From NCBI GenBank assembly GCA_000091205.1, contig AP006502.2: a stretch of 64,000 nt of DNA; one strand, given 5' to 3'. Shown here piece by piece: positions 1 through 51,860 of the stretch. Position numbers and translations under genes: made by a program. This stretch comes from Cyanidioschyzon merolae (lineage: Eukaryota). Positions within the stretch are counted from its first letter, which is position 1. Every line of letters starts with the position of its first letter. A model generated the notes under the pieces. It made no database searches and was not told the origin of the DNA. It saw only the letters and a list, made by a program, of their open reading frames with translations.

Positions 1-3000
1 GATAATCTTATATTTTTAAGCACCTGCGCTATATATGATGCTTTCGCTGAGTTGCCACTGCGACGCGTCAAGGTATTCTGAGAAGCACGTGAGCAGCTCC
101 TGGTCCAAAGATCAAGCCTGATTGCGTCTTCTGTCGACAGCACCAGTCGCACTGCAGCACGAAGGTGTGATCGAAAACGGTTCCGAATGAATGTGAATAG
201 CTAGTGGCTCTGAATCCGCAACTCGTACAAACAGTTACTCGATGAGTTGTGTCATAGCGATAGAACCGAAGCGAGCCCTGGACGAGTTAGTAGCTCCATG
301 ACCTATGATAACTTCCCGTATCTTACGATTTTTCTCAGATTCATTCTTTTGATGCGTTCTTGTTCGTAGACTTGGACAAGGCTTTGAACCGGTCTTGCTG
401 TACAGAGAGTTTTTCCATTCTTTTCGTCCCAGTCCCTTGTTCGGGAGAATCTGTCTCACCTTTCTCAGGTAGTTTCTTCTCCTACTGTTTTGCAAGGTGG
501 GGTGGTATGAATTTGGCCGCTGTACTCCAAATCTGAGTTATTCCTCGGGATTCGAACGCAAAGCGTAGATGATGGGCGCCATGCTAGCCGGTTGTATCGA
601 TGTATATCTCCACTTCTCGTCGAGCAATTGTTCATCGTCTTCCGTTTAGCGAGCACGCCGCTGACCGCACCGCACTATTCCGCTTCCTCCTGCGTACGAA
701 GAGAGAATCAACACAGACGGGAAGGGGAGGCGAAGCCAGAGAACGACATGTCGAGCAACGATTAGTCGACGAACTTCTGTGTCTTGTGTGCGAAAGACTC
801 GTCTATGGACCTGCGAGCTTCAAAATGGCATGTTAGGACAGAAAAGACGCTTTCGACTGGATTGGACCAAGTAGAGCAGGCCGGCAGGACAAGCGACTCA
901 ACGCCTATCCCAGCTGCGCAGGAATTTACCGCTCATGAGTAATGAAAACCTAACTTTGTGTAAATGCATAACAGAATATTGTCGTAAGCAGAAGCTGCGA
1001 ACTAACTCGATGAAGAAATCCGGTCGCTGTACGATCCTCTATTCTTGGTGACTTGTAGGAGGCCACAAGATCGAATCGCCGCTAGAGCGGATGTCATTGG
1101 AATGCGCACATGTCCCTTCTTAACGAAAACTGAAGAGACCCGCTTCGAGGTACCCATATTTAGGTCTGCGTCCTGTTCTGAATAAAGCGTTATCGACTGA
1201 GAGGATAAACTCGACGCTCCAGTGATAAGCGCTCGCGTTGCAATACGAAATCGACAATGTGTTCTTCAATTAGCGACCGCGCCCCCGAAGAGCGTACTTC
1301 TTCCCTTGTCCATCCGTATCTCTTCATAACAGTTCGTATCGAGGTTGCGAGGACTTCATATCCTGTGGCTTCTTGTGCATTGTTTCTTAGACGACGTATT
1401 GGGTGAAATGTATCGACAAGGCTCCAGTCGTAAAATTAGACTTGATCAATTCGTTTTTGGGTGCAGAATGTTCAGGATAAGGACTACGAGAAGCGTATGC
1501 GTCTACCTGCTGACCATGAAATCAATGATTCAAAGAAATTAGGCCCTTCTTCTCATTCACGGTGTGACATAGAAAGTCTTTCTGCGAAAATCTTCGATTC
1601 CTGGGGACGCATTTCTTTGTTGAGTGCATACGAGCAAAAAAAACAAATACAAAAAGGCTCTCCTGCTACAGGTGTACCAGAGTTGTCGATTCAGAGTATA
1701 AAAACACCTGCTGGAGCTTGTTCGTGCCCGATGCCTTTAAAAGGCGCCACCAGCTCGTGCAGTACGGATCATGCGGTTTTAACTTAGGTACTGTTTCAGA
1801 TGCTTCCATTCCGAGCATGGTCATCGCTCCGTTCATTCGGAAAGCATTCTTCATTGAGTGATGCAATGACAAGTGTGCACAAACAGCATCGATAGATTCC
1901 TGACAAGTGCCACAGCCGCGCACATCGATAGCTTTCATTGCGTCAAGGCCGATTGCGCTTTCGGTCACTGGAACGCGCCAAGCTGCAGACGCTTCCGGCA
2001 ATCAATATGAACCACCAATTCCAACGCATAAATAGCGTCGCTCGAGAAGTTTGCAAACGGAAACCCATGCTTTCGGGATGAAAGACGCTCACTGACTCAG
2101 GTTACTATGTCGCCGAAAAGCCCGGTTATCGGCAACAACCTATAGGTGCATCCATCGCGCATTGCAGCACATTTTATGCTGAACTCAGAGATCCCTATCC
2201 GCGAGCAACATGAACTGCATGCTTCATCCAAGGCAAAGCCGATGTCCTGCCTGCTGGTTGGTGACGACGAGCGGCTTTCCCGAATGATCCATTGCTGGGA
2301 AGAAGAATGCCGGAAGCTGGCCTTCGAAGGGAGTTTTGGCATCAGTTCCGTCGCTCTGTTGCACCATCTTCATGGGCACGTGCTTTGGATGCAGTTGTCG
2401 AGAGACTGTCTCGCATCCTCGCGAAAATTGGCAGCGATAATAAGAAAAGAACTTGTATCACCGCTGAAAGTTTTTCGTGCTGGTCCACAGATACTCTATC
2501 CAAGCGCTAAAATCAGGATGCACTACAGGTCAATGGTTACCGAGTTATCTGTGTAAAGAAGGCATGCTCTGAAAGACAATGTAGACTTAGATGGATCGAG
2601 CGTAAAGAAATATCTAGCAGGGCACCGAGTCTCAGGCGCGATGCTAGAAATGAGTTGCGTCGACGCCAGGCCCAAGCGGGCTCCCTGGGCAAAAGCCCCC
2701 AAAAACAGGAACGCACACGTGTATACTTGCGTATCTTTATGCATGGAAGTGCGTATCTATGAACATGCATAGGAATGCGCAGAGACGCTTTGAAATTTAG
2801 GATTCCGCGGTTTCAAGGCTCGCCATACTGCAACGTGCACGCTGCTAATCTTGGCATCGGCATACAATGAAACGATTTCCTGATTCCGAGCATATTTCTG
2901 GTAACGAACACAAGAGCCACCGCAGGAGCATGTTCATCGTCTATTCTTTCCAAAGCGTGGTGGAACGACAACGTTTTCGTAGAGCCAACGACGACTACGT

Positions 3001-3437
3001 TAAAGGTGCAGAGGCCAATCGTCGTTGTTCGCCAGGTGTTTTCGGACTCGCATGAGACGAACCTCTCTGCTATCGTCATATATTTATACGTATTCGAGGT
3101 CGCGTAATGAGGCACTGCGTAGCATGCTGAAAAGAACATCATGGACAGCGCGAAGAGGGACAGTTTCACAGCGGTTAAGGGCAGACGCTCATGGATATCG
3201 CTCAGAATCCAAGTCAATTTTTCTGGGTGGTATGCCATACTACCCAAACAAGATAGCGTTTCAGAGGAGGCGCCAGATCTATGGACTGTTTATGGTACTG
3301 TGCTGTACGCAAATCGACCCGGTCGCACTGCAAGTATCCTTGAAGCGCCAGCCGTGCTCTTGCTCCTTGTTCAGGACGTTCGCAGCGCTCCAGACGCCTC
3401 TCCGGATGCCGATGGACACTGCAGTTTCGGGCGCACG

Positions 3438-14984: not shown

Positions 14985-15874
14985 CACGTATGTACCGGAA
15001 AAGCCGCCGCGTCACGTGCGACACGCGCGCTCCTCCGGATTTGATTCCGGTCTACAGAGCGTCTCCATTTTCAGATGACAAAACGTTTACATTGACCATG
15101 GATCCCAGAATAGCGAATGGATAGTGACTTTCGGGAAAGCGTCCATCATGCTACACTGTACCTTGTATTGCTGATATTTCCTCTTGGCTGTACTAGTCGT
15201 TTCGTACGTTGTATCTGGCACCGACTACCTGGCGTTGTGTGCTAGCAATAACGCGTATAGCTCTTGTGCGAATGTTATCCTGAGACGGAACAGCTTTGCT
15301 GTACCAGAGAGGGCATCGACTCGAGGTGCGTGTCACCGCGCACGGAATTGGGACTCATCATCATTCTGGGAGCCTGGAAGCTGCGCGTACAGACGTAATG
15401 CCTGCGACTGCACAGAGCGGTATTCTAGGAGACCGCGGCGACCAGAGCGACACCCAGACGCAGCATCCTGCTCCTAGTCCCAGAACGAATTGCGTTGCGG
15501 ACGAGCTGCGCAGGTCTCGCCACAGCACCTGCCACTGGAGGAAGCATGAAGCATGAGTCCGGCAGACTCGTTCGGATCGCGGGACCTTCCGCCTAGAAGG
15601 TAAAGTTTCGAAGATATGGAAACCTTCCCCCGTTCCAACGTTTACCTTTGAGTTGGAATGTAGTTTACATCGAGTTGCTATTTAATGGTTCGTTCCTGCC
15701 CTTTCTTACCTGGGAAAATGCTCGCTGCTCACGGGCGGGCACGACTGGGTATCTGGGCAATGCGTTCCGCGCATGGTATCCAGATCCATGGGCTCGCCCG
15801 TGCGGTAGTGATACGAATGCGTTTGTAGCCTCTGTTGACTTTCGCTCATTCGCGTATGCTATCGTTCGCGAACG

Positions 15875-23913: not shown

Positions 23914-24553
23914 CAAGGGTGGGCCTCCAACCCGGGGCGCTCGTTGACAGCTTCCACAAGGCGAACACGAATCGAGCGCCCCTGCGCTGCAAAGAGCGCC
24001 CAGGCTTTCCCGATAGCGACCCAAGGCACTCCCGAGTCCAACGTTTTGCGTGGTGCTTGCCAGGAGCCAGACTCGCGTCTGAGACGCAGCAACCGTTGCG
24101 CTGGGATCAGTGCGCGCCTACGAGCCTCGGCTATCGATAAAAACACGCCAACTCCGGAGCGTCCTGCAGGCTCGAGGGTACTCCACAACTCTTGAAGCTC
24201 TAACTTGCGTAAACTTTCTAACGTGTACTGAAGTACACACGAAACTTATCCACCTGACAAAGCCAAGCTGCTAGTACGCTTGCGTACGACGCAATTCCGA
24301 TGTGGACACAGGTGCTACGGCACGTCGCTACCACTCGTTTCGTTCTCGAGATCCCGGCACACAAACTGCGCTTGAGGCCGCAGTATTGGCTACCAAACGC
24401 CACCGCTGCAACTGCGGCTACGCAATCAGCGCTGTTAATACTGTCTCTCTCTCTCTGGGTGTGTTTATACGGTATCGTCAAAGTCGCCTTTCACAGGTGT
24501 TCTTCTCTCAGGCTGGAAGCGAAGCGTTTGACTGTCATGCTGCGACAGCGTTC

Positions 24554-25040
24554 GGAGGAAACTTGGGCACTTGCTTGAGGTCCTTCGAAAAGCCGAATAT
24601 ATTGGTGCTCGCGAAACCGTTGAAGTGAGCGTCCGGAGGAAACTTGGGCACTTGCTTGAGGTCCCTTGCAAAGCCGGATATATTGGTGCTCGCGAAACCG
24701 TTGAAGTGAGCGTCCGGAGGAAACTTGGGCACTTGCTTGAGGTCCTTCGCAAAGCCGAATATATTGGTGCTTGTGAAATCGTTGATGTGAGCGTCCGGAG
24801 GAAACTTGGGCACTTGCTTGAGGTCCCTTGCAAAGTCGGATATATTGGTGCTCGCGAAATCGTCGATGTGAGCGCCCGGAGGAAACTTGGGCACTTGCTT
24901 GAGGTCCCTGGCAAAGTCAGATATATTGGTGCTCGCGAAATCGTTGATGTGAGCGTCCGGAGGAAACTTGGGCACTTGCTTGAGGTCCCTGGCAAACCCG
25001 GATATATTGGTGCTTGTGAAATCGTTGATATGATCCAGGG
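24554..25040. repeat. 81-bp minisatellite, about 6 tandem copies with point variants
   Basis: The unit ggaggaaacttgggcacttgcttgaggtcc... recurs at 24554, 24635, 24716, 24797, 24878 and 24959. All three frames on both strands stay open across the array and give 27-aa peptide repeats. Confidence 0.85.
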
Positions 25041-29821: not shown

Positions 29822-31247
29822 CGGATTACCTAGGATCGAGTTATCGACGCTAGATAGCTCCATGAAAATCAACTCTCACATATGGTGTTTGCCCAGTGAA
29901 CCCACTCCCGATGCGGTAGATATTCGATATTCACGTCTCGCTGGGTTGCTGAAGCATACCATACCGCTTCCTTGCGTCACGCGAGAATAAATGCCCGCTC
30001 TCCCGGCCTCTGATAGTTTTCATTGCAAGTCGCCAGCGTTTCGGACCAGCGCCTTCAGTGAGTGCTAAACGATTCCATTAAAAATTTGCTTGGAACCCGG
30101 AGCCTCTCGACGTTTCACCAGCACGAGTCATCTCCCTATATTGATCCAGGGGTTCAGGTCTGAGCTAAGAAAGGGTCTGCGCGCATGGCTGCTCGTGAAG
30201 TTGCATCGTAGCGAGCCGCTCATCGTAGATCGCGTCTCCATCTGACGTTCGCGCAGCTTCTCCGTACAACATATCGTGCGTCTGTCTCTGTTTCAAAGTT
30301 ATCGTCGCCGCCTATTTCAGTGTGCACTCGTGGTCATGAAGCTTGTACGCTATCCTATAGTAATCGATGGGCACTGTATACAATCGATTCCAGCATTCGT
30401 TGAACGCTGTCGATCAGGGTGCAGGATTCCAGCCTATACGATCCAGAGCTCGCCCAGCGCCATAGGTTATCACCACACGAAGCGACCTGTAGGTCATGAC
30501 CTTTGCCTCCGAATCGAACAAGTTGACGAATGAACGCTTCTTGCCTCCATACGACGGAACTCACTGGTGACCGAGGCGGAGTCTCACGCAATCCTGCCGC
30601 AATTCGTCCGCATGAACCACTGTTCGTGCTTATGTACGCTCTTAGAAGGAGGCCTGCAAAGCGTCCTTCGATGTTCGAATCGGTGCTCAGCGCGCCGCGA
30701 CGGGGCTCGCCGTCGACATTCCACTTGTTGGCGGGCGCCCTGGAGTCCTCCAAGCTCAGCTCCCCATAATGCCGATCCCTGGAAAATTTGAGCCCATTCA
30801 TCTGCCTCCCGTTCGGGTTTTCCGCACCTGACCCCAAAGTATAGGGGAACAGCTACGGCTATGTTGATCGTAGACTAGGGATGCGCACGCACCGCGACAT
30901 AGTTCTCTTCACCTAGCTTAAACAGTTGGTAACGAGTCTCTGTCTGTTCGACGATAGCCTGGTTTTCACGAAATGCACACTGGTGGATTTACCGTCGGTC
31001 TCGATTGTCTCTGAATATATCATCCGATTTCCTCATTGCAAACAAGAAACGTTGATCGCGCTCCGCCAATGCTCTTGGCATTGTCGTTCGAATGCTTCAC
31101 ATCTGGACGCAGAGATCGGCCAAAGTTTTCCTGAAACGGCCATGCAGCGCAACCCGCCAGTGTCTATGGTGATGGAATGAGTCGTGATATGAAGTATTGG
31201 GACTACATCGGATCGACGCCAGATGAGGTCAGGACACGCGCACATGG

Positions 31248-35574: not shown

Positions 35575-38004
35575 GCAGTGCCGATTCTGAGACCTGGAAT
35601 GCGCAGACGGGACTCATTCACGCGAGCCCAGCTGAGGTCTGTGTGCTTGCCTCGCACACTATCCACGCAAATGTCCAGAAGAGTGGCATTCAGACGAGTT
35701 GTGGAGTCCGCGCTTCACCTTGCACCCAGTTCATGGAGGCATCAGGCAGTGTAGATGGGGCGCAGATACCGCCAAGGCTCGGCGCGCCCGGGCGCTAAAC
35801 ACTCTACAGACCCCGTATGTCCAGCGTTCAGCAGAGCAATTGCGACCTCGGCGGTGAGTTCGACTCCGCCTAGGTACCAGAAGCGCGTCGAGTCAGCGGC
35901 TAGAGGTCGCGTTGAACGTGCTTCCGTGGTCGTCGTCGTCGTCGACATCTACTGTTGCTGCTGGTGGACCCGGCGCTTTGTTGCGACGACGCATTGCCGG
36001 CCGGTATCGTCGGAGCTTGCGGTGCAGATGCCGCTCCGCAGAGGCCGCGTCTGCAGGCCAGCGTCTGTCGATAAGCGCAGGTGCAGTCGCGTCCAGGCAC
36101 TGGAGTCGTGCTGCCAGTCGCGTCGTAGTCGCACGGGGTCTGTTTCGTGGGGAGTGTTCGTGGCCGTTGCGCGGCTGCGGATGCAACCACAGGGTCCAGT
36201 TTGGTAACGCGCACCGCATCCGCACAATGCAACTGTCCAAACAGACACCACAGATACGTATCTCTCGCGTGGGAGCACTGCGACGCGCGTCTGCAGCCGC
36301 AGGCAGGCTATCGACTATGCAAGTCGTGCGGTTACGAGCGCGTAGGTCAAGCACATCGCCTCGGTCGCATGTTCTGGATGGGGGGCTCGTTACTGCCACT
36401 GGAGCAGTCCGGATCAGCGCGTATCTCCATTCACTTGACTTTCCATGTTTAGAGTTGCGTCGGGTTACTGGTTTCAGGCAAGAGATGCCGACTTTCATAA
36501 ACACGAACACATATCACATGACCATTCTCGAGCGCAACAATCCGCTCACAACCTCTTGAGCGCGGAAAGAGCGTGCCACAGCATTCCCAAAAGAAGCTCT
36601 CAAACCGGAACCAACCTGTCCAGTAGAGTAACGAGATTAGACTCCAGGTGTACGGAAAGAGAAGCAAGGTAAAGATCAGGAACGCGTAGTCGTAGCGAGC
36701 TGGATGGATGTCGTTGAAGACCTTCACGACGCGGGGAACTGCGCCGCTCCACGCTGCCGGTGCCGGGGCTGTCGTAATCGTTGCCGTAGAGGCCCCGACC
36801 GACGCATCGACTGCGTCCGTGGTCGGCGTGCCGTCGGCTGCAGGGCCCACAGGCACTTGCGTCAGGCGATGCTCGCGAACCGTTTGCCAGTAACCGTAGC
36901 GATGCCGCTTCTGCCAGTCCGCAACGTACGGCGGCAGAAGCGCACCCTCGGCACCCGCGAGCGTCGAGCGCTGACTCGCAGCGTCGGGTCCCAGGCACGG
37001 ACCCGCTGGCCAAGCTGATGCACCCTCCCCGGGACCCAGTTCTTCACCGCAAACGAAGCAGCGCGAGTAGTACTGCGACAGCGGTAGAAACACGAACGAT
37101 TCTGGCTCCAAAGAGTCCGCGTCCGCGGCCGGCGTCAGAGGCGAGGCCACCAGACGCGGCTGGTGCAGCGCCGCGGCACTGTTCCCCGCGAATCCTCAGC
37201 CGTCTAGTGGCTCAAGCGGCTGGGCTCCAGCCGAAAGACGCTGGACGCCCCGTCCAGACCTGCTGGTTTGACGCTGACCTCCTGTGCGTTGCGTCGACGC
37301 ACCCCCTCCGACGAACACATGCACGCGCTCGTTTGCATCAGAAGCTTTGGACGTTGCCCGATCACCTGGTCCAGCTACTTTCCCCTGATCACCGTTTATC
37401 ATGTGCGTTCGTCTCGGTTGGTGGCAAGTTCTAGTCTCTCTGCCGGTTCACAGCGGTCTCTGGCGTTCCAGACTCGCCCAGGATACCGCCTATGAATGCA
37501 GCGCGGACGTCCGGCAGCGCTCCCGGCGGTGGTATCCGTTGACGCAGCGTCGAGGGATGATGAGGCGGCGACGATCGACGCCACAAACCCGCAGAGGATC
37601 GCATGCTCCGTTGGCCTCGGGAGTCCTAGTAGCGGCATATTGCTCGAGCTGGAAGCTTCATATCGCAAACATTGCTATAGGCGCCACTGCTGTCGCTTTC
37701 GGCAGGCTCGGCACACGACAGGACGTAGGAAACGACCAGAATATCCGAGACGAATTATAGGTAATGGAACATGGAAGTAGGGGGTTGATGGATACTTTAC
37801 AGTGCACTGAAAAAAAAGCATAAAGAAAGAAGGAAGAAACGCGCATAATCGGAGAACGCTGGCGTAAGTAAACGCTCTGTCAATGAAAAAAATCGCAAAC
37901 ATAGCATGGTATGGTCTTTCAACTGGATTTTGGTTCATAACAGCTGAGTGGAATCGAATGCTTGTTAACAGTGCATTGCTGGAAGTCCTAATCACGGTGC
38001 AGTG

Positions 38005-39440
38005 TATACTCTGGATCCTAGTCGAATTGTTTGTAAAATGGATTCTTTATTGAATAGTGCACGGAGGACGGCATTCTACATTCAGGTCAGTCTTACGTCT
38101 ACCCTCAGATGGTTGACGAGCACTAAAAGAGAAAAGTACATGCGCTCCGCGTCAAAAACCGACAGTCTCAAAGAGTTCTTGCGTTCAATGATAGAAAATG
38201 ATTCGTTGATCATCGAACTGAAAGCAATAAGCGGCGAGTACAGCCACCGCCGGTATCTATCTTTCTAAACAGCTTGCTCCTTTAGCCCTGAATACACTGG
38301 GATACAGTGGGAAAAAGGTCCTAGTTCACGCACGGCCATCTTGCACGGAAATCCCAACGATTACAACGTTCCTGGAACTCAGCGACCGGTTTGAAACACA
38401 AGGACATCGGTTTGTTTTTTAAGACGGCGAGGCCTCATTCGGATGAAACGGTCGGAGCTTATATGCGTACTCGCCGAGCATGCATCCCGTTTTATATACA
38501 ATCGAACTCGAGGGGAATGAGGACATCATCTTCCGTTCAAGCCGCAGTGGACTCATTTGGCGGCTACAGTTTCGCTTATAGAGAAAGCGTATTCAACAGC
38601 ACCAACCACCTTGTCGAATCATGGAAGACTTGTTCGCTGACGCCTGGCGACGCTCTCCTAGTGATCAACTTGGTAGTTCACAATCCCCGCTGCGTCCCCG
38701 CTTTCGTGGATACTATTGAGGTAGAGCTGCTTTTCATTCCAGCGTACTCTTCGAGCTTAAATCGTATCGAAAGGAGTGTTTTCGCTCGTGACACGTAATG
38801 ATCACCTCAGAAGGCGAATCGCTGAAGCGCTTAGCACACATTGATACCGGGAGACATGTCGCCTTTCCCCTGCAAGTCCTTCTCCATCCGGAAGGTTCTC
38901 GCCTTAATGCATAAAGAAGTGAGTTCATTTGAATGAAAAATTCATGGGAACGGTATAGCCATGCAAGTCAAGGATCACGGGAGGCCGCTGTCGCCGGGTA
39001 CCTCGAAAAACGGAAAAATCCTAGGCTCGCCGACTATCGATCGAAAAAGGGTATCTGACGACGACGACAACGACGACAACGACGACAACGACAACGACCA
39101 AGAAGAAGAATAGAGGCGATAGACGAGAATAGACGTTCGCCCGACGTGACAATGCCGAGACTGAAACGACACAGAGGGCACGAGTTCCACCTATGCTCCC
39201 AGTGGTGCATTCCACCGGCGGCAATAAACACATAGAGCTCGTGGACCGGGACTTCAACGCTGCCATCAATATCAGACGACTTGTGGCGCTGAAGACGAGA
39301 CCCGCGGAGCTGACACGATCTAACTTTGCGGGGCAGCCTCTCAGGCTCGAAATGTGCTTGGATATACTGAAACTGATTGCAGGCGGCGAGGCGAAAAGGC
39401 TGGACGTCGTCTGCGACTAGGTTAACAAACTTACCCTCTA
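38005..39440 (+). mobile_element. composite non-autonomous element (copy X-D): Tc1/mariner-like terminus plus DDE-transposase remnant, joined to the 3' fragment of a TnpB/Fanzor-like gene
   Basis: The 5' end CAGTGTATACTCTGG is the inverted complement of the conserved 3' terminus of the TnpB-like copies. Frameshifted ORFs 38002..38268 and 38391..38798 retain ...LLFIPAYSSSLNRIERSV. This resembles the FLPPYSPDLNPIE third-acid-residue block of Tc1/mariner/IS630 DDE transposases. ORF 39193..39420 encodes ...HIELVDRDFNAAINIRR..., a TnpB RuvC-III motif. The whole arrangement is duplicated at 50476..51860. Confidence 0.6.
39057..39110. repeat. (GAC)n/(GACGACAAC)n microsatellite followed by (GAA)3, inserted inside the X-D element
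   Basis: The run gacgacgacaacgacgacaacgacgacaacgacaacgac is read from the sequence. It is absent from the paralogous copy Y-E. Confidence 0.8.
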
Positions 39441-39518
39441 TAGTTGTGAAATGTTTATCATTTTGCAGATTATAGTTAGGCGTATGTTCGCTGAACGCCA
39501 TTCTACAGACAAACGACG

Positions 39519-40480
39519 CCAGCAGTGTACAGTAGTGGCGAGAAGCCCGCCCTAGACGAAACGTCTCCAACTGACGTGCAGACGCCTCCCCGTCATTTTG
39601 GACCGGCCACCCAATACTGCCTCCAACTTTTTCTCATGTAGTTCGAGTTTGAGAAGTTGTCCAACAAAGTTCTCTCGTGTGAGTTCCGGAGGTCTCATCT
39701 CCAGCACCGCACATCTACTTATATTGATAGCGGCGTTAAAGTCTCGGTTCACGAACTCCACCCGTTTCTTGCCACTGATCGGACTAATTAATGCGAGTAG
39801 TCCACGAACGTTCGCCCTCCTTTCCATTTGCTCCTCCGTCAGCGGTCCGTACTTTGCTATTTCCTCAGGGCTCCTCTGGCGCTTCTCCATCTCGACCCTT
39901 TGAAGTGTGCACCCCAGTTCATGGTGTGTATACGATGTTCGGAACTCATCTATCGGGGTTGTAACGAACCGCCATGCGCACTCCTTGTACGTTCTTGTCG
40001 TTGGAGCTGGCATAGTCCCTTTTTGGGTCTTCCATCGCCCTGCTCCGCACGCTACTATCAGCCTCTGACTTTGATTCTCTTTGAGGGCACTCAACTGATT
40101 GAAAAAGTCCGCGAACGCCCGCTCCCTCTACCCGTATGGATTCATACGCAGACGAGCCAACCGAGGCTTCGTATACTCCTCCCAGAGCGCATCCCAATGC
40201 GCAACGCGAACATCCATGAATTTTCGAAAAGCTTCAAAGTCCGCTCCTCGGCTCGTGACCTCGCTCAAAGCTGCCAGGTGATCCTTCATTCCTGAATTCC
40301 AATTCTCGATTTTCTTCCTCGCATTCATTATACCGGATTCTCGATCGTATTTGGCTCTCGAGAACCTCAAAAGACGCATGTCTTTCCGACGCAAATTACC
40401 GTCAGTGCCATCTTCCGAACGCTCCGGGCCTGCACCTTAGAGATATTCGGCGCCAGTTTGCCTCAGCTGGGCATGCTCTG
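39519..40480 (-). mobile_element. TnpB/Fanzor-like element copy A, 5'-truncated; conserved 3' terminal region ending ...CGCCACTACTGTACACTGCTG
   Basis: ORFs 40128..40394 and 39552..40094 sit in the same frame, separated by a single TAG. Together they encode ...RESGIMNARKKIENW..YKECAWRFVTTPIDEFRTSYTHHELGC...VEFVNRDFNAAINI. This matches the C-terminal half of TnpB (the (V)xVxP..TSxxC zinc-finger region, then RuvC-III D-x-NAA-x-NI). Homology to copy B stops near 40470, just before the 3' end of the SET gene. Confidence 0.65.
39552..40394 (-). pseudogene. TnpB/Fanzor-like RuvC nuclease pseudogene (copy A): in-frame TAG and missing N-terminus
   Basis: I translated the junction by hand: ...RLRMNPYG, then TAG, then RERAFADFFNQLSALKENQSQRLIVACGAGRW... 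continue in one frame. The stop falls in the segment that aligns to TnpB RuvC-II (IVIEDLNVAGMLRNRRLARAI). Confidence 0.6.
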
Positions 40481-40498: not shown

Positions 40499-41917
40499 TC
40501 ACCGCTCCGCCGATACACCACTGTTCGTCGCATGCCCAGAGTGCTGAGGATGGGCATGCCCGAGCTGCTGCAGCGCACGCTCCAGAATACGCTTCTTTCC
40601 TATGCGAAAGCGCCGCGCCAGCTCCAATCGCTGGTTGCTCGGCTGCCATTGCTCATCCTCAGTGAGCGTCGTCGGCTTGCGCGCGAGCTCTTCGCGAATC
40701 AGTGCTATCAGACCAGTCGCCGAGAGGTGTTGGACCGACTCTGGATTGCGCACGCGGCCTGTCGCATCGAAAACGATCGTCGTCTCTGAGGCATCGTCCC
40801 AGAGCTTGTACGTGTCGTGCGGGTTATCCTCTTCCACGAATCCGTACAAAGCCAAAAGTTCATCGTTGGTCAAAGTGCCGTACGATATGAAGACCTGATC
40901 GCCTGCATGCGTGTCTCGATTGCTTATGCTGAGCGAAAAAGCATCATAAAAGTACTCATAAGCGACCTTCGATTGGACGCGAGAAGAATGATTGAAGAGA
41001 TCAATGAAAGGTGCAATGACATACTTCTTCAACGGTGCACCCTGCATGGACTGATAAATGCGCGGGTACAGCGCGTCAAATACGAGCTGCGACAAGACCA
41101 CCACCAGAAAGACGTTCAGTGCTGCGAACGCGTCCATGAGATGAAAGTTCCAGCTCGCTAGGGAAAGTGCCCCAGCGAAACACGCCTGACGCCAGCGTTC
41201 ACCGAATGGCGTCGTCTCGGAGGGTCCGCTGAATGCGCGCGTGACAACGACGTTCAACGCCCACTGAAAGTCCTGTTCGCTGAATAAACCTCCTCGCACT
41301 TTCAAATCGATTCCGCCTCGTTCGAATGTCTGCCGCACGAACCGACCATAGAGATCCTTCCATTTTCGTTCCTGCTCGCTGATAGCCCGCAAAAGACAAT
41401 CATACTGGAGCTCCCGACGTTCTGCATCTGTCCAGTACAGAGGCCGCTCGTCAAATGTTGTCGGCAAGAGACGGAACCAGGGCGAAAGTGTGCAGTTAGA
41501 CGCCGATACTTTGGCAGGGCCTCGACGCTGGTTTGGCCGGATCTCCCAGCGCTTTAATTTGCGACGCAAGACAAGAGTCTCTAGCTTTCGAGCAGACTCA
41601 GGATCTGCTTTGTACCGCTCGAAAAGCAACAGAAGCGCGAGACGAGCGTACCAAGGCGCCTGCTTCCAGAACATGGGCGCGCAGACCTCTTCTGGCAGAG
41701 GACAACCTCGTCCGCTATCATCGGAGCGGGTCTGCAACGCCAGAAACCCCGGCACTCGAGCGAGAATCGAACCTGCAGGCAAGGCGGTTTCAGCTCTGAG
41801 GCCGCGTAGGTGCTCGCGGCCAAAGTGCGCAATGCTGAGTTCAGCGGTTTCAATGCCGGCGCCTTTTGCCCACTCCATAAAGCCGACCTCTATGCTATGA
41901 TCATTCAGCGTTGTCAT
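40499..41917 (-). CDS. SET-domain protein-lysine N-methyltransferase, SETD3/SETD6/Rubisco-LSMT-like
   Basis: The ORF is open up to 42634, but the SET-family N-terminus (MTTLNDHSIEVGFMEWAKGAGIE...GRGL-type start) begins at the ATG near 41917. The C-terminal part holds IAPFIDLFNHSSRVQSKVAYEY and VFISYGTLTNDELLALYGF, which are the SETD3/6 and LSMT hallmarks. The upstream 240 codons of open frame are most likely non-coding 5' region. Confidence 0.8.
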   Translation of the reverse strand: MTTLNDHSIEVGFMEWAKGAGIETAELSIAHFGREHLRGLRAETALPAGSILARVPGFLALQTRSDDSGRGCPLPEEVCAPMFWKQAPWYARLALLLLFERYKADPESARKLETLVLRRKLKRWEIRPNQRRGPAKVSASNCTLSPWFRLLPTTFDERPLYWTDAERRELQYDCLLRAISEQERKWKDLYGRFVRQTFERGGIDLKVRGGLFSEQDFQWALNVVVTRAFSGPSETTPFGERWRQACFAGALSLASWNFHLMDAFAALNVFLVVVLSQLVFDALYPRIYQSMQGAPLKKYVIAPFIDLFNHSSRVQSKVAYEYFYDAFSLSISNRDTHAGDQVFISYGTLTNDELLALYGFVEEDNPHDTYKLWDDASETTIVFDATGRVRNPESVQHLSATGLIALIREELARKPTTLTEDEQWQPSNQRLELARRFRIGKKRILERALQQLGHAHPQHSGHATNSGVSAER

Positions 41918-42609
41918 ATCTAGCTGTGGCGAATGCCTCGTGGCTTCCCTGGTCCATGTATTCTGCTGGGGTTCCTCGCCCGCTGTACTCCTTTGGTGCT
42001 CGCGCGTGTTGCAGTGTTCGCCGCTTTTTTCTTCGCCCAGCTCTCCCTCTCGAGATAGCGTCGCACGCACGCTGGACCGGAAACGAGTCATCAACCGATT
42101 ACACGGAGAGAGGGCCGGTCCGCTGCACACGGACAACGCCACCGGGCACCGTTGCTGCCACACGGTCGACGGCAGCAGCCACGCAACGGTCATCTGGTCT
42201 GGTTCAGCTCTACCAGAAAACAAAAGCATAGTCCCAGTGAGTGACAACTGATCCGACGCAGCCTCACTCGAAGACGCAATCACACGCGCACCTCGCAAAA
42301 AGCAGAACCGTTCAGTGGACGACAATTTCGGAACGTCGCAGGTCACTGCGAAGCTATGATGCGCTGTGCCGCTGCGCTCCAGAGTTGCAAACACTCGCCC
42401 GTTCTTTCGGGGCGCAGCGTAGCCCGGTGCTCCAGTGTGCTTCCAGAGGTCCTTCTTGTACGTCTGAAACGTTTCTACGAAACCACTGAACAGCTTTCTA
42501 TCGTCCAACACGAAACTCAGGAGCTTCAGTCCTTGAGCGAACGAGCATGAGCTTCGTGCTCGCGAGCAGTTCGAGATAGGACGTTTTGGATCAAACGAGG
42601 ATCCGTCGC

Positions 42610-43829
42610 TGAGTTCGCGCACCCCTGGAAGCAAACGCCTTTCGAAAGTCGAACAACAGCGGTGTACAGTAGTGGCGGCAAACGCGCCCTAGACAAGAAG
42701 TCTCCAACCGAGATGCAGACGCCTCCCAGGTTTTTTTCGACCGGCCACCCACTACTGCTTCCAATCTTGTCTCATATAGCTCGACTTTGAGAGGTTGTCC
42801 AACAAAGTCCTCTCTTGTCCACTCTGGAGGTCTCGTCTCCAGCACCGCATATTTCCTTATATTGATTGCGGCGTTATAGTCACGATTCACAAACTCCATA
42901 CGTTTCGTGCCATTGATTGTAATTAATAATGCGAGTAGCCCTCGCACTTTCTTCCTTCTTTGCATTTGCTCTTCCGTCAGCGGTCCGTATTTTGCTATAT
43001 CCTCAGGGCTCCTCTGGCACTTTTCCATCTCCACTCTCTGAAGTGTACAACCCAGCTCATAGTGTATATACGATGTTCGGAACTCATCTACAGGTATGGT
43101 AACAAAACGCCTTGCGCACTCTTTGTATGTTCTTGTCGTTGGAGCTGGCGTAGCTCCTTTTTGGGTCTTCCAGCGCACCGCCCCATACGCTACTACGAGC
43201 CTTTGATTTCATTCTCCTTCAGGGCACTCAACCCATTGAAAAAGTTGGCAAACGCCCGCTACCTCCCACCGTATAGATTCATACGCAAACGAGCCCACCG
43301 GGGCTTGGTATACTCCTCCCATAGCGCCTCCCAGTGAGCAACACGAACTTCTATGAATTTCCGAAAAGCTTTAAAGTCCGCTCCTCGGCTCGTCACCTCG
43401 CTCAAAGCTTCCAGGTGCTCTTTCATTCCTGAGTTCCAAGTCTCGATTTTCTTCCTCGCATTCATAATACCGGATTCTCGATAGTATCTTGCTCTCGAGA
43501 GCCTCAAAAGACGCATGTCTTTCTGACGTAAGTTACCATCAGTCCCATCTTCCGCACACTTTGGTACAGCGATGGTTATGATGTTCGTATTCCCAGGGTC
43601 CGCGCCAACGACAAAGTCGTTATCCTGCACCTCCTGCATCGCAAGATCCGCACCCTTCTCATCTACATCCTTCGCCGAGCCGTCTACAAGGTTGTACTTT
43701 TCCACTTCCTGCGTCGCAGGATCCGCATCCTTATCATCTACATCCTTCGCCGAGCCGTCTACAAGGTCGTCATCCTCCACTTCCTTCGTCGCAGGATCCG
43801 CATCCTTCTCATCTATATTCTTCGCCACG
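42610..43829 (-). mobile_element. TnpB/Fanzor-like element copy B, the most complete copy, frameshifted; it forms the left arm of a head-to-head palindrome with copy C
   Basis: ORF 43259..43828 encodes acidic 25-aa repeats, then FVVGADPGNTNIITIAVPK (a RuvC-I GxDxG motif) and RLLRLSRARYYRESGIMNARKKIETWNSG. ORF 42591..43178 encodes ...RWKTQKG..YKECARRFVTIPVDEFRTSYIHYELGC...MEFVNRDYNAAINI. A 1-nt deletion relative to copy A sits between them, giving tcgtagtag. The conserved 3' tail cgccactactgtacaccgctg lies at ~42656. Confidence 0.65.
43610..43829. repeat. 75-bp tandem repeat, ~2.7 copies, encoding the acidic 25-aa repeats at the N-terminus of TnpB-like copy B
   Basis: The unit atccttcgccgagccgtctacaaggtNgtNNtNNtccacttcctNcgtcgcaggatccgcatccttNtcatctac is read directly from the sequence. 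The protein repeat is VDGSAKDVDDKDADPATQEVEKYNL. Confidence 0.75.
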
Positions 43830-44880
43830 GGCGAAGCCGAGGACGGACCAGGAGGCGAGCCCGACGGCGCTGGAGGCGCAGAAGAACGCGTTTGCCGTTG
43901 GCGTGGACTCTGCGAACACGAACATCGTTACCATTGCAGCACCCAAGCGTGAGGAAGATGGCTCTGTCGGCAACTTATGTCAGAAAGACATAAGACTGTT
44001 GAAGCTCTCATGAGCGAGATATTACCGAGAATCCGGTATAATGAATGCGACGAAGAAAAGTGAGACATCGAATTCAGGGGTTAAGTGAATTTGGAAGCGA
44101 TCAGCCGGGTGACGAGCCGCGGAGCCGATATTTAAGCGTTTCCAGAGGCTATGAGCACTCACGCATCTGAAGTCGAGAGCCTTTGGAAAGAATGCACAAA
44201 GTTCAGGTGGGCTCGTCTGCGTATGAACCTGTACTGTAGGAAGCAGCGAGCATACGCCAGCTTTTTCATTCAATTGAGCGCCCTCAAGGAGGACAGGAGC
44301 CAAAGGCTCGTAGTAGCATACGGGGCAGGTCGATGGATCACCCAAAAAGGGTGTACACCAGCCTCCAACGACAAGAACGTACAAGGAGTGCGCACACCGT
44401 TATGTCAAAACACCTTTAGATGAGTTTCGAACATCTTCTACACACCACGAGCTGTGTTGTACACTTCAGAGGGTCGCGATGGAGAAAAGCCAGCGGCTCG
44501 CTGACGGAAATGCAAATGGCAAGGAGGGCGAAACTTCGAGGACTACTCGCTTTGGTTAATAAAACTAATGATAGGAAGAAACGAATAGAGTTCCTGGACT
44601 GAGACTTTAACGCCGCCATCAGTATAAGGAAATGTGCAGTACTGGAAAGAAGACCCCCGGAGTTGGCGAGAGCCAACTTTGCGAGGCAACCTCCCAAAAT
44701 GGAGTGATACGAGAAGAAGTTGAAACCAGTAGTAGGTGGCCAGTTGCGGAACGCCGGCACAGGCGTCTGCACATCATTGGGTAGACAATCGGTCTACGAC
44801 GGACGGTGTGAGAAACGCCACTCCTGTACACTGGCTTTCCAGCGTTTCTCTTTTGCAAGGCGTTTGGTGGTGTTTCCAGA
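43830..44880 (+). mobile_element. TnpB/Fanzor-like element copy C, heavily degenerate, inverted relative to copy B and abutting it head-to-head
   Basis: Conceptual plus-strand translation from 43831 gives AKPRTDQEASPTALEAQKNAFAVGVDSANTNIVTIAAPKREEDGSVGNLCQKDIRLLKLS*ARYYRESGIMNATKK..., which parallels copy B. ORF 44151..44423 contains LSALKEDRSQRLVVAYGAGRWITQKG. Downstream lies DFNAAISIRKCAVLERRPPELARANF. The 3' tail ...aaacgccactcctgtacactgg lies at ~44815-44838. Confidence 0.6.
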
Positions 44881-45103
44881 GGCGAATTGTTTATCAAAAA
44901 CGTCTTCTATCGATCTTCGAAACCAACGTGCTGCTTCCTCTGTGCGGCACGGGGCGTACGCTATGCGCTTTTCTGCTGATTGACAGCGGAAGCGACGAGT
45001 CCGGTTACTGCCTTGAAGACTTAGACGCTTTGGAGAGACCATCACGTGGATTGTTTCAGTTTTCTGACCTCCTCCTAACCACCACGCTCGGCTCTCTGTT
45101 GCA

Positions 45104-50475: not shown

Positions 50476-51860
50476 CAATGTGCTGTATAGATCGTAGACG
50501 AATAGAATGTTAGATATATATTCTTTACTGAACAGTGCAAGGAGGACTGCATTCCTCGTTCAGGTACGGTTCACCACAGTATTCAGATGGACGAGGAAAA
50601 CTGAAATAAAGAAGCAAGTACATGCGATCCACACCGAAACCAGATATACTCATAGCGTGCTTGCGTTCACTGGTAGAAAAACGACCCGTTGATTACTTTA
50701 GGGAAGGGGAAAGCGACGATAATACCCATTACCTCTATCTATTTTTCTCGCCAGCTAATTCGTGTGATCCTGAATGCACTGGCATACAGTCGCGATAAAG
50801 TCCTGGTTCATGCACAGCCGTCTTGTATCGAATTCGCAACGACAGCGTTCCCGGAACGTCCCGATCGGTACGAAGCACAGAGACGTAGCTCTGTCTTTTT
50901 CAGACGATGCGACTTTCTTTGGCCGAAATGGTCGGGGCGTACATGGGTAGTCGCGGAGATGGAGCCAGCTGTATGTATGATCGAACTTGATGAGAGCGAG
51001 GACATCATCAACTGTTTCAGCTGCAGTGGATTCATTTGGCGGCCGCAGTTTCGCTCAGAGAGAAGGCTCGTCGAACAGCACACACTGTACCGAATCATTG
51101 AAGAAATTTCCCCTGACGTCTGACGACGTCGTCCGGTTGTACGGCTTGGTATTTCACCATTCCCCTTGCGTTCGAATGTTTGCTGATTCGATCGGGGAAT
51201 AGAGCTGCTTTTCATTCCTCGATATAATCCGTGGTTGAGCCCCATAGAAAGTGTTTTTTCTATTATGAGACGTTTTTAATGCTCAACGGGGCGAGTCGCT
51301 GCAGCGTTCAGCACACATTGGTACCTGGCCACATTGTGTCCTTCGTCTGCAAGCCCTTCTCGCTCCGGTTAGCTCCTCATCTAACGGCATAAAGAAGCGC
51401 GCCATTTGAAGAAATAAGAAATCCAAGGGATGAGCTGCGGTGTACACTTCAGAACATCGAGATAGAGAGAAGGCAGCGGAGCGCATCGCGCGATAGAAAA
51501 GTACGGAGAGCTGACAGAGCAGTCAATGGTACTGAGTACTCGTGTTCTGGCAATCCTTGCATGGGTGAGTTCAACAAGCGGCATTATATGCGAGGAGTTC
51601 GTGAAACGAGACTCCAACGTCACCTTCAGTATCCGACGATATATAGTGCTGAAGAAGAGAACCGAGGAGCTGACGCGATACAGGTTTATGGGGCAGTCTC
51701 TCAGACTTGAGGTGTGCAGGAGGAAGCTGACGTCAATAGGTGGTGGTCGGTCGAAAAAGGCTTCACCTCTGCGAAAATTGCTTCGCCCATAACTTGCGTT
51801 GGAAAAGCAAAATCGCACACATGAAGACTTTGTGATTTGAACATGCTGTTGTTCGGGAAA
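50476..51860 (+). mobile_element. composite element copy Y-E, paralogous to 38005..39440: Tc1/mariner-like transposase remnant joined to a TnpB-like 3' fragment
   Basis: ORFs 50507..50692, 50689..51123 and 50987..51202 parallel copy X (LLNSARRTAF..., ...AAVDSFGG.SFA.RE...). In copy Y the transposase C-terminus has decayed to ...ADSIGE-LLFIPRYNPWLSPIES. ORF 51526..51792 encodes EEFVKRDSNVTFSIRRYIVLKKRTEELTRYRFMGQSLRLEV, a decayed RuvC-III region. Nucleotide homology with X-D can be followed across the junction, as in gaRtcgctgMagcgYtYagcacacattgRtacc. Confidence 0.55.

Follow-up and report, generated by a model that had tools for sequence, protein, structure and literature searches.

The inverted pair and its surroundings

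The window examined here is a stretch of 64,000 nucleotides (nt) of the Cyanidioschyzon merolae 10D genome, in which two 5′-truncated copies assigned to CMe-1A, an element that encodes a Fanzor1 protein, lie head to head with their 3′ ends facing outward (arms B and C; Table 1), a third copy (A) being found nearby. Taken together, the comparisons described below suggest, at a probability of roughly 0.6, that this pair descends from a founder dimer of two dead copies, which arose once and subsequently became dispersed. Coordinates throughout are those of the window. The host is identified by eight long open reading frames (ORFs) with an ATG start, all exact matches to 10D proteins in the range BAM83141–BAM83153 (CYME_CMT135C–CMT158C) from the 1,621,617-bp chromosome.

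The first-pass annotation had described two TnpB-like copies fused into an imperfect palindrome, and the inverted, colinear and head-to-head arrangement of the copies was borne out. A repeat search comparing arm B with arm C found seven colinear inverted segments of 60–210 nt with 73–81% complementarity; blastn aligned 904 nt at 72.5% identity (E=4e-144), and a global alignment gave 722 matches, 264 mismatches and 10 gap events, or 73% identity. The longest exact inverted run is 17 nt, and the spacer between the paired segments exceeds 200 nt, and is asymmetric and non-palindromic. Colinear inverted arms around a short spacer, the geometry of a fold-back product, are present.

Arm B retains the coding content of the C-terminal ~46% of Fanzor1 (the RuvC half, residues ~397–734), interrupted by one in-frame TAG and one 1-nt frameshift near 43200–43260, while arm C carries many stops and frameshifts, together with a 26-nt deletion relative to copies A and B. 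The complete ~3.2-kb element with both ends is not present in either arm, consensus positions 1–~2093 being missing from B and 1–~2139 from C, and neither arm holds an intact ORF of ~734 amino acids with the N-terminal WED/REC region. Because the N-terminal ~400 residues are missing and the frames are broken by stops and frameshifts, no nuclease can be encoded by either arm; both are dead pseudogene fragments, and at the window locus the pair is inert DNA. Copy A has one in-frame stop, other than that of arm B, and is 84% identical to B. The SET-type ORF constitutes the unique flank of arm B, which lies directly upstream of it, an adjacency confirmed in five independent metagenome contigs (L059 and L086–L089). 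As a separate observation, copies A and B bracket this SET/Rubisco-LSMT-like ORF as direct repeats, and the arrangement is kept in all related contigs.

Table 1. Features of the inverted CMe-1A pair and its immediate surroundings (window coordinates).
Feature	Position	Strand	Description
Arm B	42619..43849	-	5′-truncated CMe-1A (Fanzor1) pseudogene; consensus ~2094-3169 plus ~15-nt semi-conserved 3′ tail
Arm C	43850..44886	+	Heavily decayed, older 5′-truncated CMe-1A pseudogene; consensus ~2140-3169 plus tail
B/C breakpoint	43846..43853		Consensus ~2094 (reverse complement) joined to ~2140
7-3-7 palindrome, cttcgcc-acg-ggcgaag	43820..43836		CMe-1A consensus 2110-2126; inside arm B
75-bp (25-amino-acid acidic) tandem repeat	43611..43826	-	2.9 units, wholly in arm B; consensus unit 2120-2196
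3′ terminal module of arm B	42634..42667	-	Subterminal hairpin-type TTCGACTTTCGAA, then GGCGTT; terminal-probe match
3′ terminal module of arm C	44843..44864	+	CGTTTCTCTTTTGCAAGGCGTT, then tail TGGTGGTGTTTCCAGAGG; terminal-probe match
Copy A	39494..40434	-	5′-truncated CMe-1A pseudogene, consensus 2236-3169; direct orientation with B
Host ORF	40499..42634	-	Between copies A and B; weak Pfam SET / Rubisco-LSMT substrate-binding matches

Assignment to the CMe-1A family of Fanzor1

CMe-1A has been described as a family of ~150 copies, each ~80% identical to a 3169-bp consensus (Bao & Jurka 2013, Mob DNA 4:12; PMC3627910). The element encodes a 734-amino-acid Fanzor1 protein (CMe-1), is without terminal inverted repeats (TIRs) or determined target-site duplications (TSDs), and has its class given as ‘unknown’ (PMC3627910); its copies are old, and it is without a transposase (PMC3627910). 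Nucleotide homology to the published consensus is found in all three window copies, with blastn identities of 88.4% for A (2236–3169), 88.8% for B (~2093–3169) and 76.2% for C (2140–3169), and the repaired translation of arm B is 85% identical (271/317) to residues 406–722 of CMe-1. The earlier label ‘TnpB-like’ was right in a broad sense, the precise family being CMe-1A, in the Fanzor1 branch.

Close relatives recovered by database search number 261, at ~80% identity, of which the intact ones are 410–516 amino acids long as called, and have a common layout of an N-terminal region, one to six 25-amino-acid acidic repeats, and then the motifs GADPGNTN, DEFRTS and NRDFNAAINI. A profile search of 1.8 billion representatives extended these to 1,467 relatives, many of 600–700 amino acids. 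Pfam and NCBIfam scans of the window ORFs gave no model above threshold for the CMe-1A copies, and a Pfam scan of the intact relatives gave no matches; PF26935 is listed for some relatives, and one distant relative has a sub-threshold match (E=0.002) to PF07282, the Cas12f1-like TNB/OrfB zinc-ribbon model. Searched against PDB sequences, a profile built from a diversified alignment of 74 diverse members (A3) matched the solved Fanzor1 proteins of Parasitella parasitica (9cf0, E=3.7e-22), Spizellomyces punctatus (8gkh, E=5.7e-14) and Guillardia theta (9cer, E=2.1e-6), the matches spanning the WED strand, RuvC-I (DPG), the DEFRTS segment and RuvC-III (NRDxNAAxNI). The same PDB search returned nothing with the profile of a shallow alignment (A2) or with the published CMe-1 consensus protein alone, and an AlphaFold2 model from A2 had a predicted local distance difference test score (pLDDT) of 31 and was unusable.

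Homology to bona fide Fanzor1 is found both through the A3 profile and through the 85% identity of arm B to CMe-1, and the RuvC motifs of the family (xDPGxxN, DE(F/Y)xT(S/T) and NRDxNAAxN) are present. Arm B has kept GADPGNTN, VDEFRTS and NRDYNAAINI; arm C keeps GVDSANTN and DEFRTS, with a stop replacing the R of NRD (LD*DFNAAISI). In a truncated pseudogene, such motifs would say nothing on activity. The stretch between RuvC-II and RuvC-III, where the motif of Bao & Jurka has a C4 zinc ribbon, reads TSYTHHELGC...EKC...RGLLAL in the family, without CxxC pairs, and the zinc-ribbon cysteines do not appear to be conserved. Judged by these similarities, the window pair belongs to Fanzor1/CMe-1A, a family already known in C. 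merolae since 2013, and related to the solved Fanzor1 proteins (9cf0, 8gkh, 9cer), and more distantly to TnpB of IS200/IS605 and IS607, by profile-level homology; in contrast to the solved proteins, the window copies are fragments with stops and frameshifts.

The junction between the arms

The two arms had initially been described as diverging from a palindromic junction at 43829, both starting at the same coding position and both beginning with the residues AK. None of these points was upheld. The published consensus carries CTTCGCCCGTGGCGAAG at 2110–2126, which is the palindrome on the other strand; in arm B it codes for S-A-S-P-V-A-K, a linker that shortly precedes the acidic repeat, and a 28-mer around it recurs, with 3–4 substitutions, in ~25 ordinary monomer copies. 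As perfect 7-3-7 palindromes occur eight times in the window, such a motif is not unusual. The palindrome, from its place in the consensus, is inherited coding sequence of arm B and not the junction.

When mapped to the published consensus by blastn, arm B extends to 43853 and arm C begins at 43850, and the 13 nt to the right of the palindrome (43837–43849) match the B orientation at 11 of 13 positions and the C orientation at 2 of 13. Since B homology continues for 13 nt or more beyond the palindrome, the breakpoint lies at ~43846–43853, with an overlap or ambiguity of at most a few nt; an earlier placement at 43857–43866, from a MAFFT alignment, was replaced after this mapping. Arm B starts at consensus ~2093–2094, in the linker, and arm C at ~2140, inside a repeat unit, so that the truncation points are 46 consensus positions apart. 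The peptide ‘AKPRTDQ’, read in the frame of C, is the antisense of B’s linker rather than a repeat unit of C. The locus offers a worked example of how a self-complementary motif within a repeat can mimic a symmetric junction.

Close to the junction, the 75-bp array was returned by Tandem Repeats Finder with a period of 75, 2.9 copies and 85% matches. The ~3 units previously counted in arm B are thus confirmed; the ~1 unit counted in arm C is not, ~0.75 of one unit being retained there. The array has three units at the 10D window locus and two in all the other dimers described below, the third unit of the window being missing from every one of them, and the one change seen between strains at the dimer locus is a gain or loss of one 75-bp unit. 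Among intact relatives, the 25-amino-acid acidic repeat, which lies between a WED-like strand and RuvC-I, varies from one to at least six units in proteins that are ~80% identical, the relatives compared including P0001, P0003, P0005, P0007 and P0014; the published consensus has one unit, as against three in arm B. The array changes copy number. The difference in repeat number between the arms, which had been taken as a sign of independent decay, does not serve as one, given that units vary from one to six among intact relatives and that the third unit is particular to the window among dimers. Independent decay of the arms is nevertheless supported by the reading frames, B having one stop and one frameshift and C many breaks.

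The same dimer at other sites

Head-to-head pairs were found in 6 of 80 related loci (L041, L042, L050, L059, L068 and L070), all recovered as metagenome contigs from Joint Genome Institute (JGI) samples, L059 being the window locus itself; among the datasets, Ga0078972 is a Yellowstone metagenome (PMC8986864). The junction sequence is common to all six. Consensus breakpoints agree in L041, L042 and L059; in L050, L070 and L068, the BLAST alignments continue through the self-complementary palindrome, giving a start of 2109–2110 for the C-like arm, and of 2106 for the B-like arm of L068.

Beyond the 3′ terminus of the B-like arm, the flanks are unrelated to one another and to the window. L042 is flanked by CCT7, a SWI/SNF-like gene and a sterol methyltransferase gene (BAM83471–83473), which in 10D lie on the same chromosome as the window, ~320 gene numbers off, and its CCT7 protein is identical to that of 10D. 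The flank of L070 is CMP022C, on a 908-kb chromosome, and that of L050 a DDX5-type helicase gene. The dimer is placed 39 nt downstream of CCT7, 196 nt upstream of CMP022C and 656 nt downstream of DDX5. At the CCT7 locus, it is 100% identical over 1871 nt in a second sample (L082), and two further samples contain its 3′ edge; the one other dimer that is complete, L068, is more diverged and lies within a 31-kb contig. The sites with the dimer junction are thus the window (SET-gene) locus, CCT7, CMP022C, DDX5, L041 and L068. The same junction occurs at several sites, with unique flanks starting from the element ends, as would be expected of a mobilisable composite, and it is not private to one locus, as a fold-back product would be, at least four other unrelated flanks being present. 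At the end of the CMP022C-dimer contig, a tandem repeat with a 97-nt period and units 98–99% identical was also observed (L070 7581–7878).

An assembly artefact had been named as a possible undoing of the junction. It could take the form of an inverted repeat that was collapsed or wrongly joined, or of a contig of hairpin type, and metagenome contigs do habitually break within these repeats; the identity level of L059 also switches within the 75-bp array. The window belongs to a chromosome of the 10D genome, which is a finished reference. Independently of it, the junction is crossed by contigs from six metagenome datasets, the CCT7-locus version being identical in two, and a self-hairpin artefact is impossible because the arms are only 73% identical. 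The junction is real, and the probability of an artefact is negligible.

The window locus is 99.0–99.2% conserved in five independent contigs (L059 and L086–L089), a level equal to that of the surrounding DNA. This bears on two suggestions made for the inverted pair from its sequence, that it might be a fragile site and that it might be a source of hairpin or small RNAs. A fragile palindrome needs near-identical arms and a short spacer. The arms here, at 73% identity, with a longest exact run of 17 nt and a spacer of more than 200 nt, do not fit that description, and the conservation of the locus in five assemblies also speaks against fragility. A functional inverted-repeat locus, acting as a hairpin or small-RNA source or as a regulator of the SET-domain gene, would draw on the 99% conservation between strains and on the position of arm B directly upstream of the SET-type ORF; the conservation is the same as that of the neighbouring DNA, the dimers occupy varying positions relative to neighbouring genes, perfect pairing is limited to 17 nt in arms of 73% identity, and Rfam gave no match. 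In addition, C. merolae is reported to be without RNA interference (RNAi) machinery (PMC11376382), which makes a small-RNA role unlikely. A functional locus of this kind appears extremely improbable.

The ends of the element

In ~50 copies, conservation is high up to ...CGTTCGACTTTCGAACGGCGTT, which includes a 7-bp/3-nt hairpin-type sequence in one subfamily, and then falls after GGCGTT. Many copies have a semi-conserved tail of 8–16 nt past this terminus, TGTTTCCAGGGGTG or TGGTGGTG, and as both B and C have the tail, their outer ends lie near 42619 and 44886. Examples of the tail are seen in L017, L021, L044, L051, L074 and L080, as well as in the window (42619–42633 and 44865–44886), and in L017, L019 and L021 similarity past the published 3′ end runs for 40 nt. 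The 3′ boundary of CMe-1A would, by these alignments, be longer or more variable than published. A reading of GGCGTT as a sharp 3′ end, with homology between the B and C flanks beyond it, was set aside, part of that homology being the semi-conserved 8–16-nt tail. In the last ~210 nt of 42 copies, the part of the element where a guide (omega) RNA would be encoded, RNAalifold found no consensus structure, and Rfam likewise gave no match.

The element reaches ~1.8 kb upstream of the methionine chosen by the gene caller, consistent with the published length of 3169 bp and protein of 734 amino acids, and the 5′ boundary found here coincides with the start of the published consensus. The 5′ and 3′ ends have at most a vague TIR resemblance to one another.

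Unequal age and mosaicism of the arms

The arms differ markedly in their distance from the family. Arm B, with 90.5% identity to the family consensus, is near a typical copy (median 89.8%), and arm C, with 77.6%, is the lowest of 91 copies. The C-like arms of the different dimers have 94–96% mutual identity and less than 80% identity to all other copies, forming a tight clade, and C is no closer to B than to other members (72–78% to all). Derived sites common to all four C-like arms number 81 of 502, as against 2 of 501 for the matching B-like arms. A RIP-like (repeat-induced point mutation) or deamination bias was considered as the source of the divergence of arm C and rejected, transitions (69) and transversions (71) being nearly equal.

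These values bear on a fold-back or hairpin-mediated inverted duplication of one 5′-truncated copy, in which a break in the repeat or linker and priming ~46 nt downstream would leave arm B long and arm C short, with a short spacer between them, B later being homogenised by gene conversion and C decaying. The colinear inverted arms are as such an event would leave them, the unique spacer consists of B’s linker and repeats, and weak inverted similarity past both termini scores 26, where shuffled sequences reach at most 22. The expected outcome is two arms of the same age, neither with a closer relative than the other, and this is not what is found. The unequal divergence of B and C from the consensus disfavours a simple fold-back duplication, as do the 81 derived sites common to the C-like arms against 2 for the B-like, and the equal distance of C from B and from other members; the ‘flank similarity’ is in part the semi-conserved element tail of many copies. 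Since the B-like arms are mosaic, their apparent youth could be secondary, but conversion must then have replaced almost the whole of B in each dimer and never C. Template switching or hairpin repair at this locus, as first proposed, is further disfavoured by the asymmetric breakpoints and by the presence of the junction at other chromosomal sites. A fold-back origin is accordingly regarded as unlikely.

Recurrent formation of independent junctions at a structural hot spot, for instance through the consensus palindrome promoting a template switch in replication, would explain why consensus breakpoints agree across dimers, and the palindrome lies 13 nt from the breakpoint; those 13 nt are themselves common to the dimers, and the 81 common derived substitutions and tight clade of the C-like arms point to common descent, not repeated origin. 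This very improbable explanation has been largely refuted already. That one breakpoint and one set of derived substitutions in arm C are found between different flanks shows instead that the junction arose once, in a founder. As the host of L042 is essentially 10D-like, its C arm (~94%) is a paralogue, and not an orthologue, of the C arm in the window.

The B-like arms present a more complex picture. Across dimers, blocks of 96–99% identity alternate with blocks of 80–88%, at positions that differ from pair to pair, and the similarity of the window B arm to the other B-like arms peaks next to the junction. Derived bases occurring in at least three of the four arms number 18 for the B-like arms, whereas control sets of random monomers have 7.5 on average and 19 at most.

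Proposed origin and dispersal of the dimer

The reading put forward here, to which a probability of about 0.6 is attached, is that a founder head-to-head dimer of two dead, 5′-truncated CMe-1A copies, with 3′ ends outward, arose once and became dispersed. An old, already decayed copy (C) would have been joined to a younger one (B), the likely route being end-joining or a deletion between inverted neighbours, or the insertion of a truncated copy next to another. The composite may then have spread in one piece, with the terminal modules at its two outward-facing 3′ ends serving as cis ends on which the machinery that moves CMe-1A could act in trans. The B-like arms would later have been patchily overwritten by ectopic gene conversion with family members of ~85–90% similarity, which the C arms escaped because they are less than 80% similar to any other copy.

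Several observations weigh against this account. The other dimers were seen only in metagenome contigs of close relatives. On the C side, an outer flank is visible in the window and L068 only, the remaining dimer contigs breaking inside the C-like arm, and at these two complete dimers no TSD was found. Empty sites were looked for in 15 further contigs from the window and CMP022C loci and not found, all of these contigs stopping inside the repeat. With insertion documented by neither TSDs nor empty sites, we infer movement of the dimer as a unit from its distribution only. Weak similarity over 29 nt past both termini would fit an inverted duplication that included flanking DNA, and the B-like arms are barely closer to one another than random monomers are. 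Finally, L059 and the window are 99.2% identical over 14 kb, but ~87% identical in the C part of L059 (the last ~200 nt).

With regard to the last of these, L059 1–220, compared with window 43830–44046, is closer after the 75-bp array to the CCT7-locus dimer (L042) than to the window. This switch of identity, within the array, reflects either an assembler jump between paralogous dimers or an exchange between dimers.

The same list of difficulties includes a different course of events, in which what spread was possibly no more than the C arm, the junction and a short stub of B, copied into resident monomers through ectopic homologous recombination or a break-induced process. The distal B-like arms would then be the original resident copies, and the whole dimer would not have transposed. 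The window B arm is 95–99% identical to the B-like arms of other dimers near the junction only, and falls to the family background further out; the B-like arms have almost no common derived sites, and each ends at the normal terminus with a unique flank, like a resident monomer. Distal blocks of 92–98% identity in B are harder to accommodate (L041/L070, window-equivalent 43231–42785, and L050/L042, 43331–43032), and the far side of the C arm would have to resolve without homology at the recipient site; that side is examinable at two loci only. On balance, spread of the stub is considered doubtful, and dispersal of a founder dimer as a unit is preferred.

Other CMe-1A and repeat sequences in the window

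Eight pieces of Fanzor1 elements are present in the window, including arms B and C, copy A, a copy at 15.1 kb and a relic at 30.3 kb. The 15.1-kb copy (15074–15707) corresponds to CMe-1A consensus 2–639 at 78.7%, and is a copy of the short TE-N2_CMe-type element; TE-N2_CMe is identical to the 5′ 635 bp of CMe-1A (Bao & Jurka, PMC3627910). At 30315–31227 (minus strand), and also at L059 12736–13639, there is a diverged Fanzor1-like relic with 24–34% amino-acid identity to CMe-1 residues 305–618 and no blastn match with the CMe-1A consensus, which may be a far older copy or else represent another Fanzor1 family. The small CMe-1A fragments are at 39157–39399 (plus strand; CMe-1 residues 640–721), 51396–51762 (plus strand; residues 598–721) and 37678–37781 (consensus 84–189). 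Tail-to-tail abutment of copy A with the 39.2-kb fragment was considered and discarded, ~75 nt of unrelated AT-rich DNA lying between them and the fragment being without a terminus. In overlapping ORFs at ~24550–25030, a tandem repeat with a period of ~81 nt shows an apparent length difference of ~243 nt between 10D and the 99%-identical L086.

Comparison with known systems and significance

The closest comparison is with CMe-1A as published (PMC3627910), which is of the same organism and family, and likewise comprises old copies without TIRs or recognisable TSDs. The published account, the one paper in the literature searched that mentions CMe-1A, describes monomers and the 635-bp 5′ derivative TE-N2_CMe, and no recurring head-to-head dimer of 5′-truncated copies. 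The dispersed head-to-head dimer of 3′ halves is thus a previously undescribed arrangement of a known family, and modestly new; in other respects the pair is ordinary. The Chlamydomonas Fanzor1 elements CRe-1, CRe-2 and CRe-3, which are non-autonomous Helitron2 elements for which ‘one-ended’ transposition has been invoked (PMC3627910), are similar in the over-representation of 3′ ends and in variable 5′ truncation, the latter being seen here in copy A, in both arms and in several fragments; a subterminal 3′ hairpin-type sequence and the lack of a transposase gene within the element are further likenesses. The CRe elements have ends in common with verified Helitrons, and TSDs following a TTTT motif often flank them (PMC3627910), whereas for CMe-1A neither a relationship to Helitrons nor a target motif or TSD could be demonstrated.

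Foldback-type and other long-inverted-repeat derivatives, and inverted insertion sequence (IS) dimers, also have kb-scale inverted element ends at several sites with a common junction, but the arms here are 73% identical and not near-identical, no TSDs were found, the parent is without TIRs, and no recent movement was seen. Fold-back or hairpin-capped duplications and LINE-1 ‘twin-priming’ products are comparable in their head-to-head form, short unique spacer and breakpoint overlap of a few nt. Fold-back products begin with identical arms, whereas B and C differ strongly in age; twin-priming inverts an internal 5′ segment, whereas both arms here reach the 3′ terminus of the element.

The dimer bears on how Fanzor1 elements without transposase or TIRs move: a dispersed derivative keeping just two 3′ ends would limit what is needed in cis to the 3′ terminal region. 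A bolder proposal, which is speculative and rather unlikely to hold in full, is that the dimer is a genuine mobile composite for which two 3′ modules are enough in cis, accompanied by pervasive gene conversion among the ~150 copies. If this were true, CMe-1A would propagate by a 3′-driven mechanism, such as one-ended, rolling-circle-like copying, or alternatively break repair guided by Fanzor, with copying from the 3′ end inward, and the conversion of arms that are similar enough would account for the mosaic state of the B arms as well as for the long-noted survival of intact Fanzor1 ORFs in an ‘old’ family. C arms left untouched beside B arms that are mosaic provide a natural experiment on ectopic gene conversion, in a genome with efficient homologous recombination.

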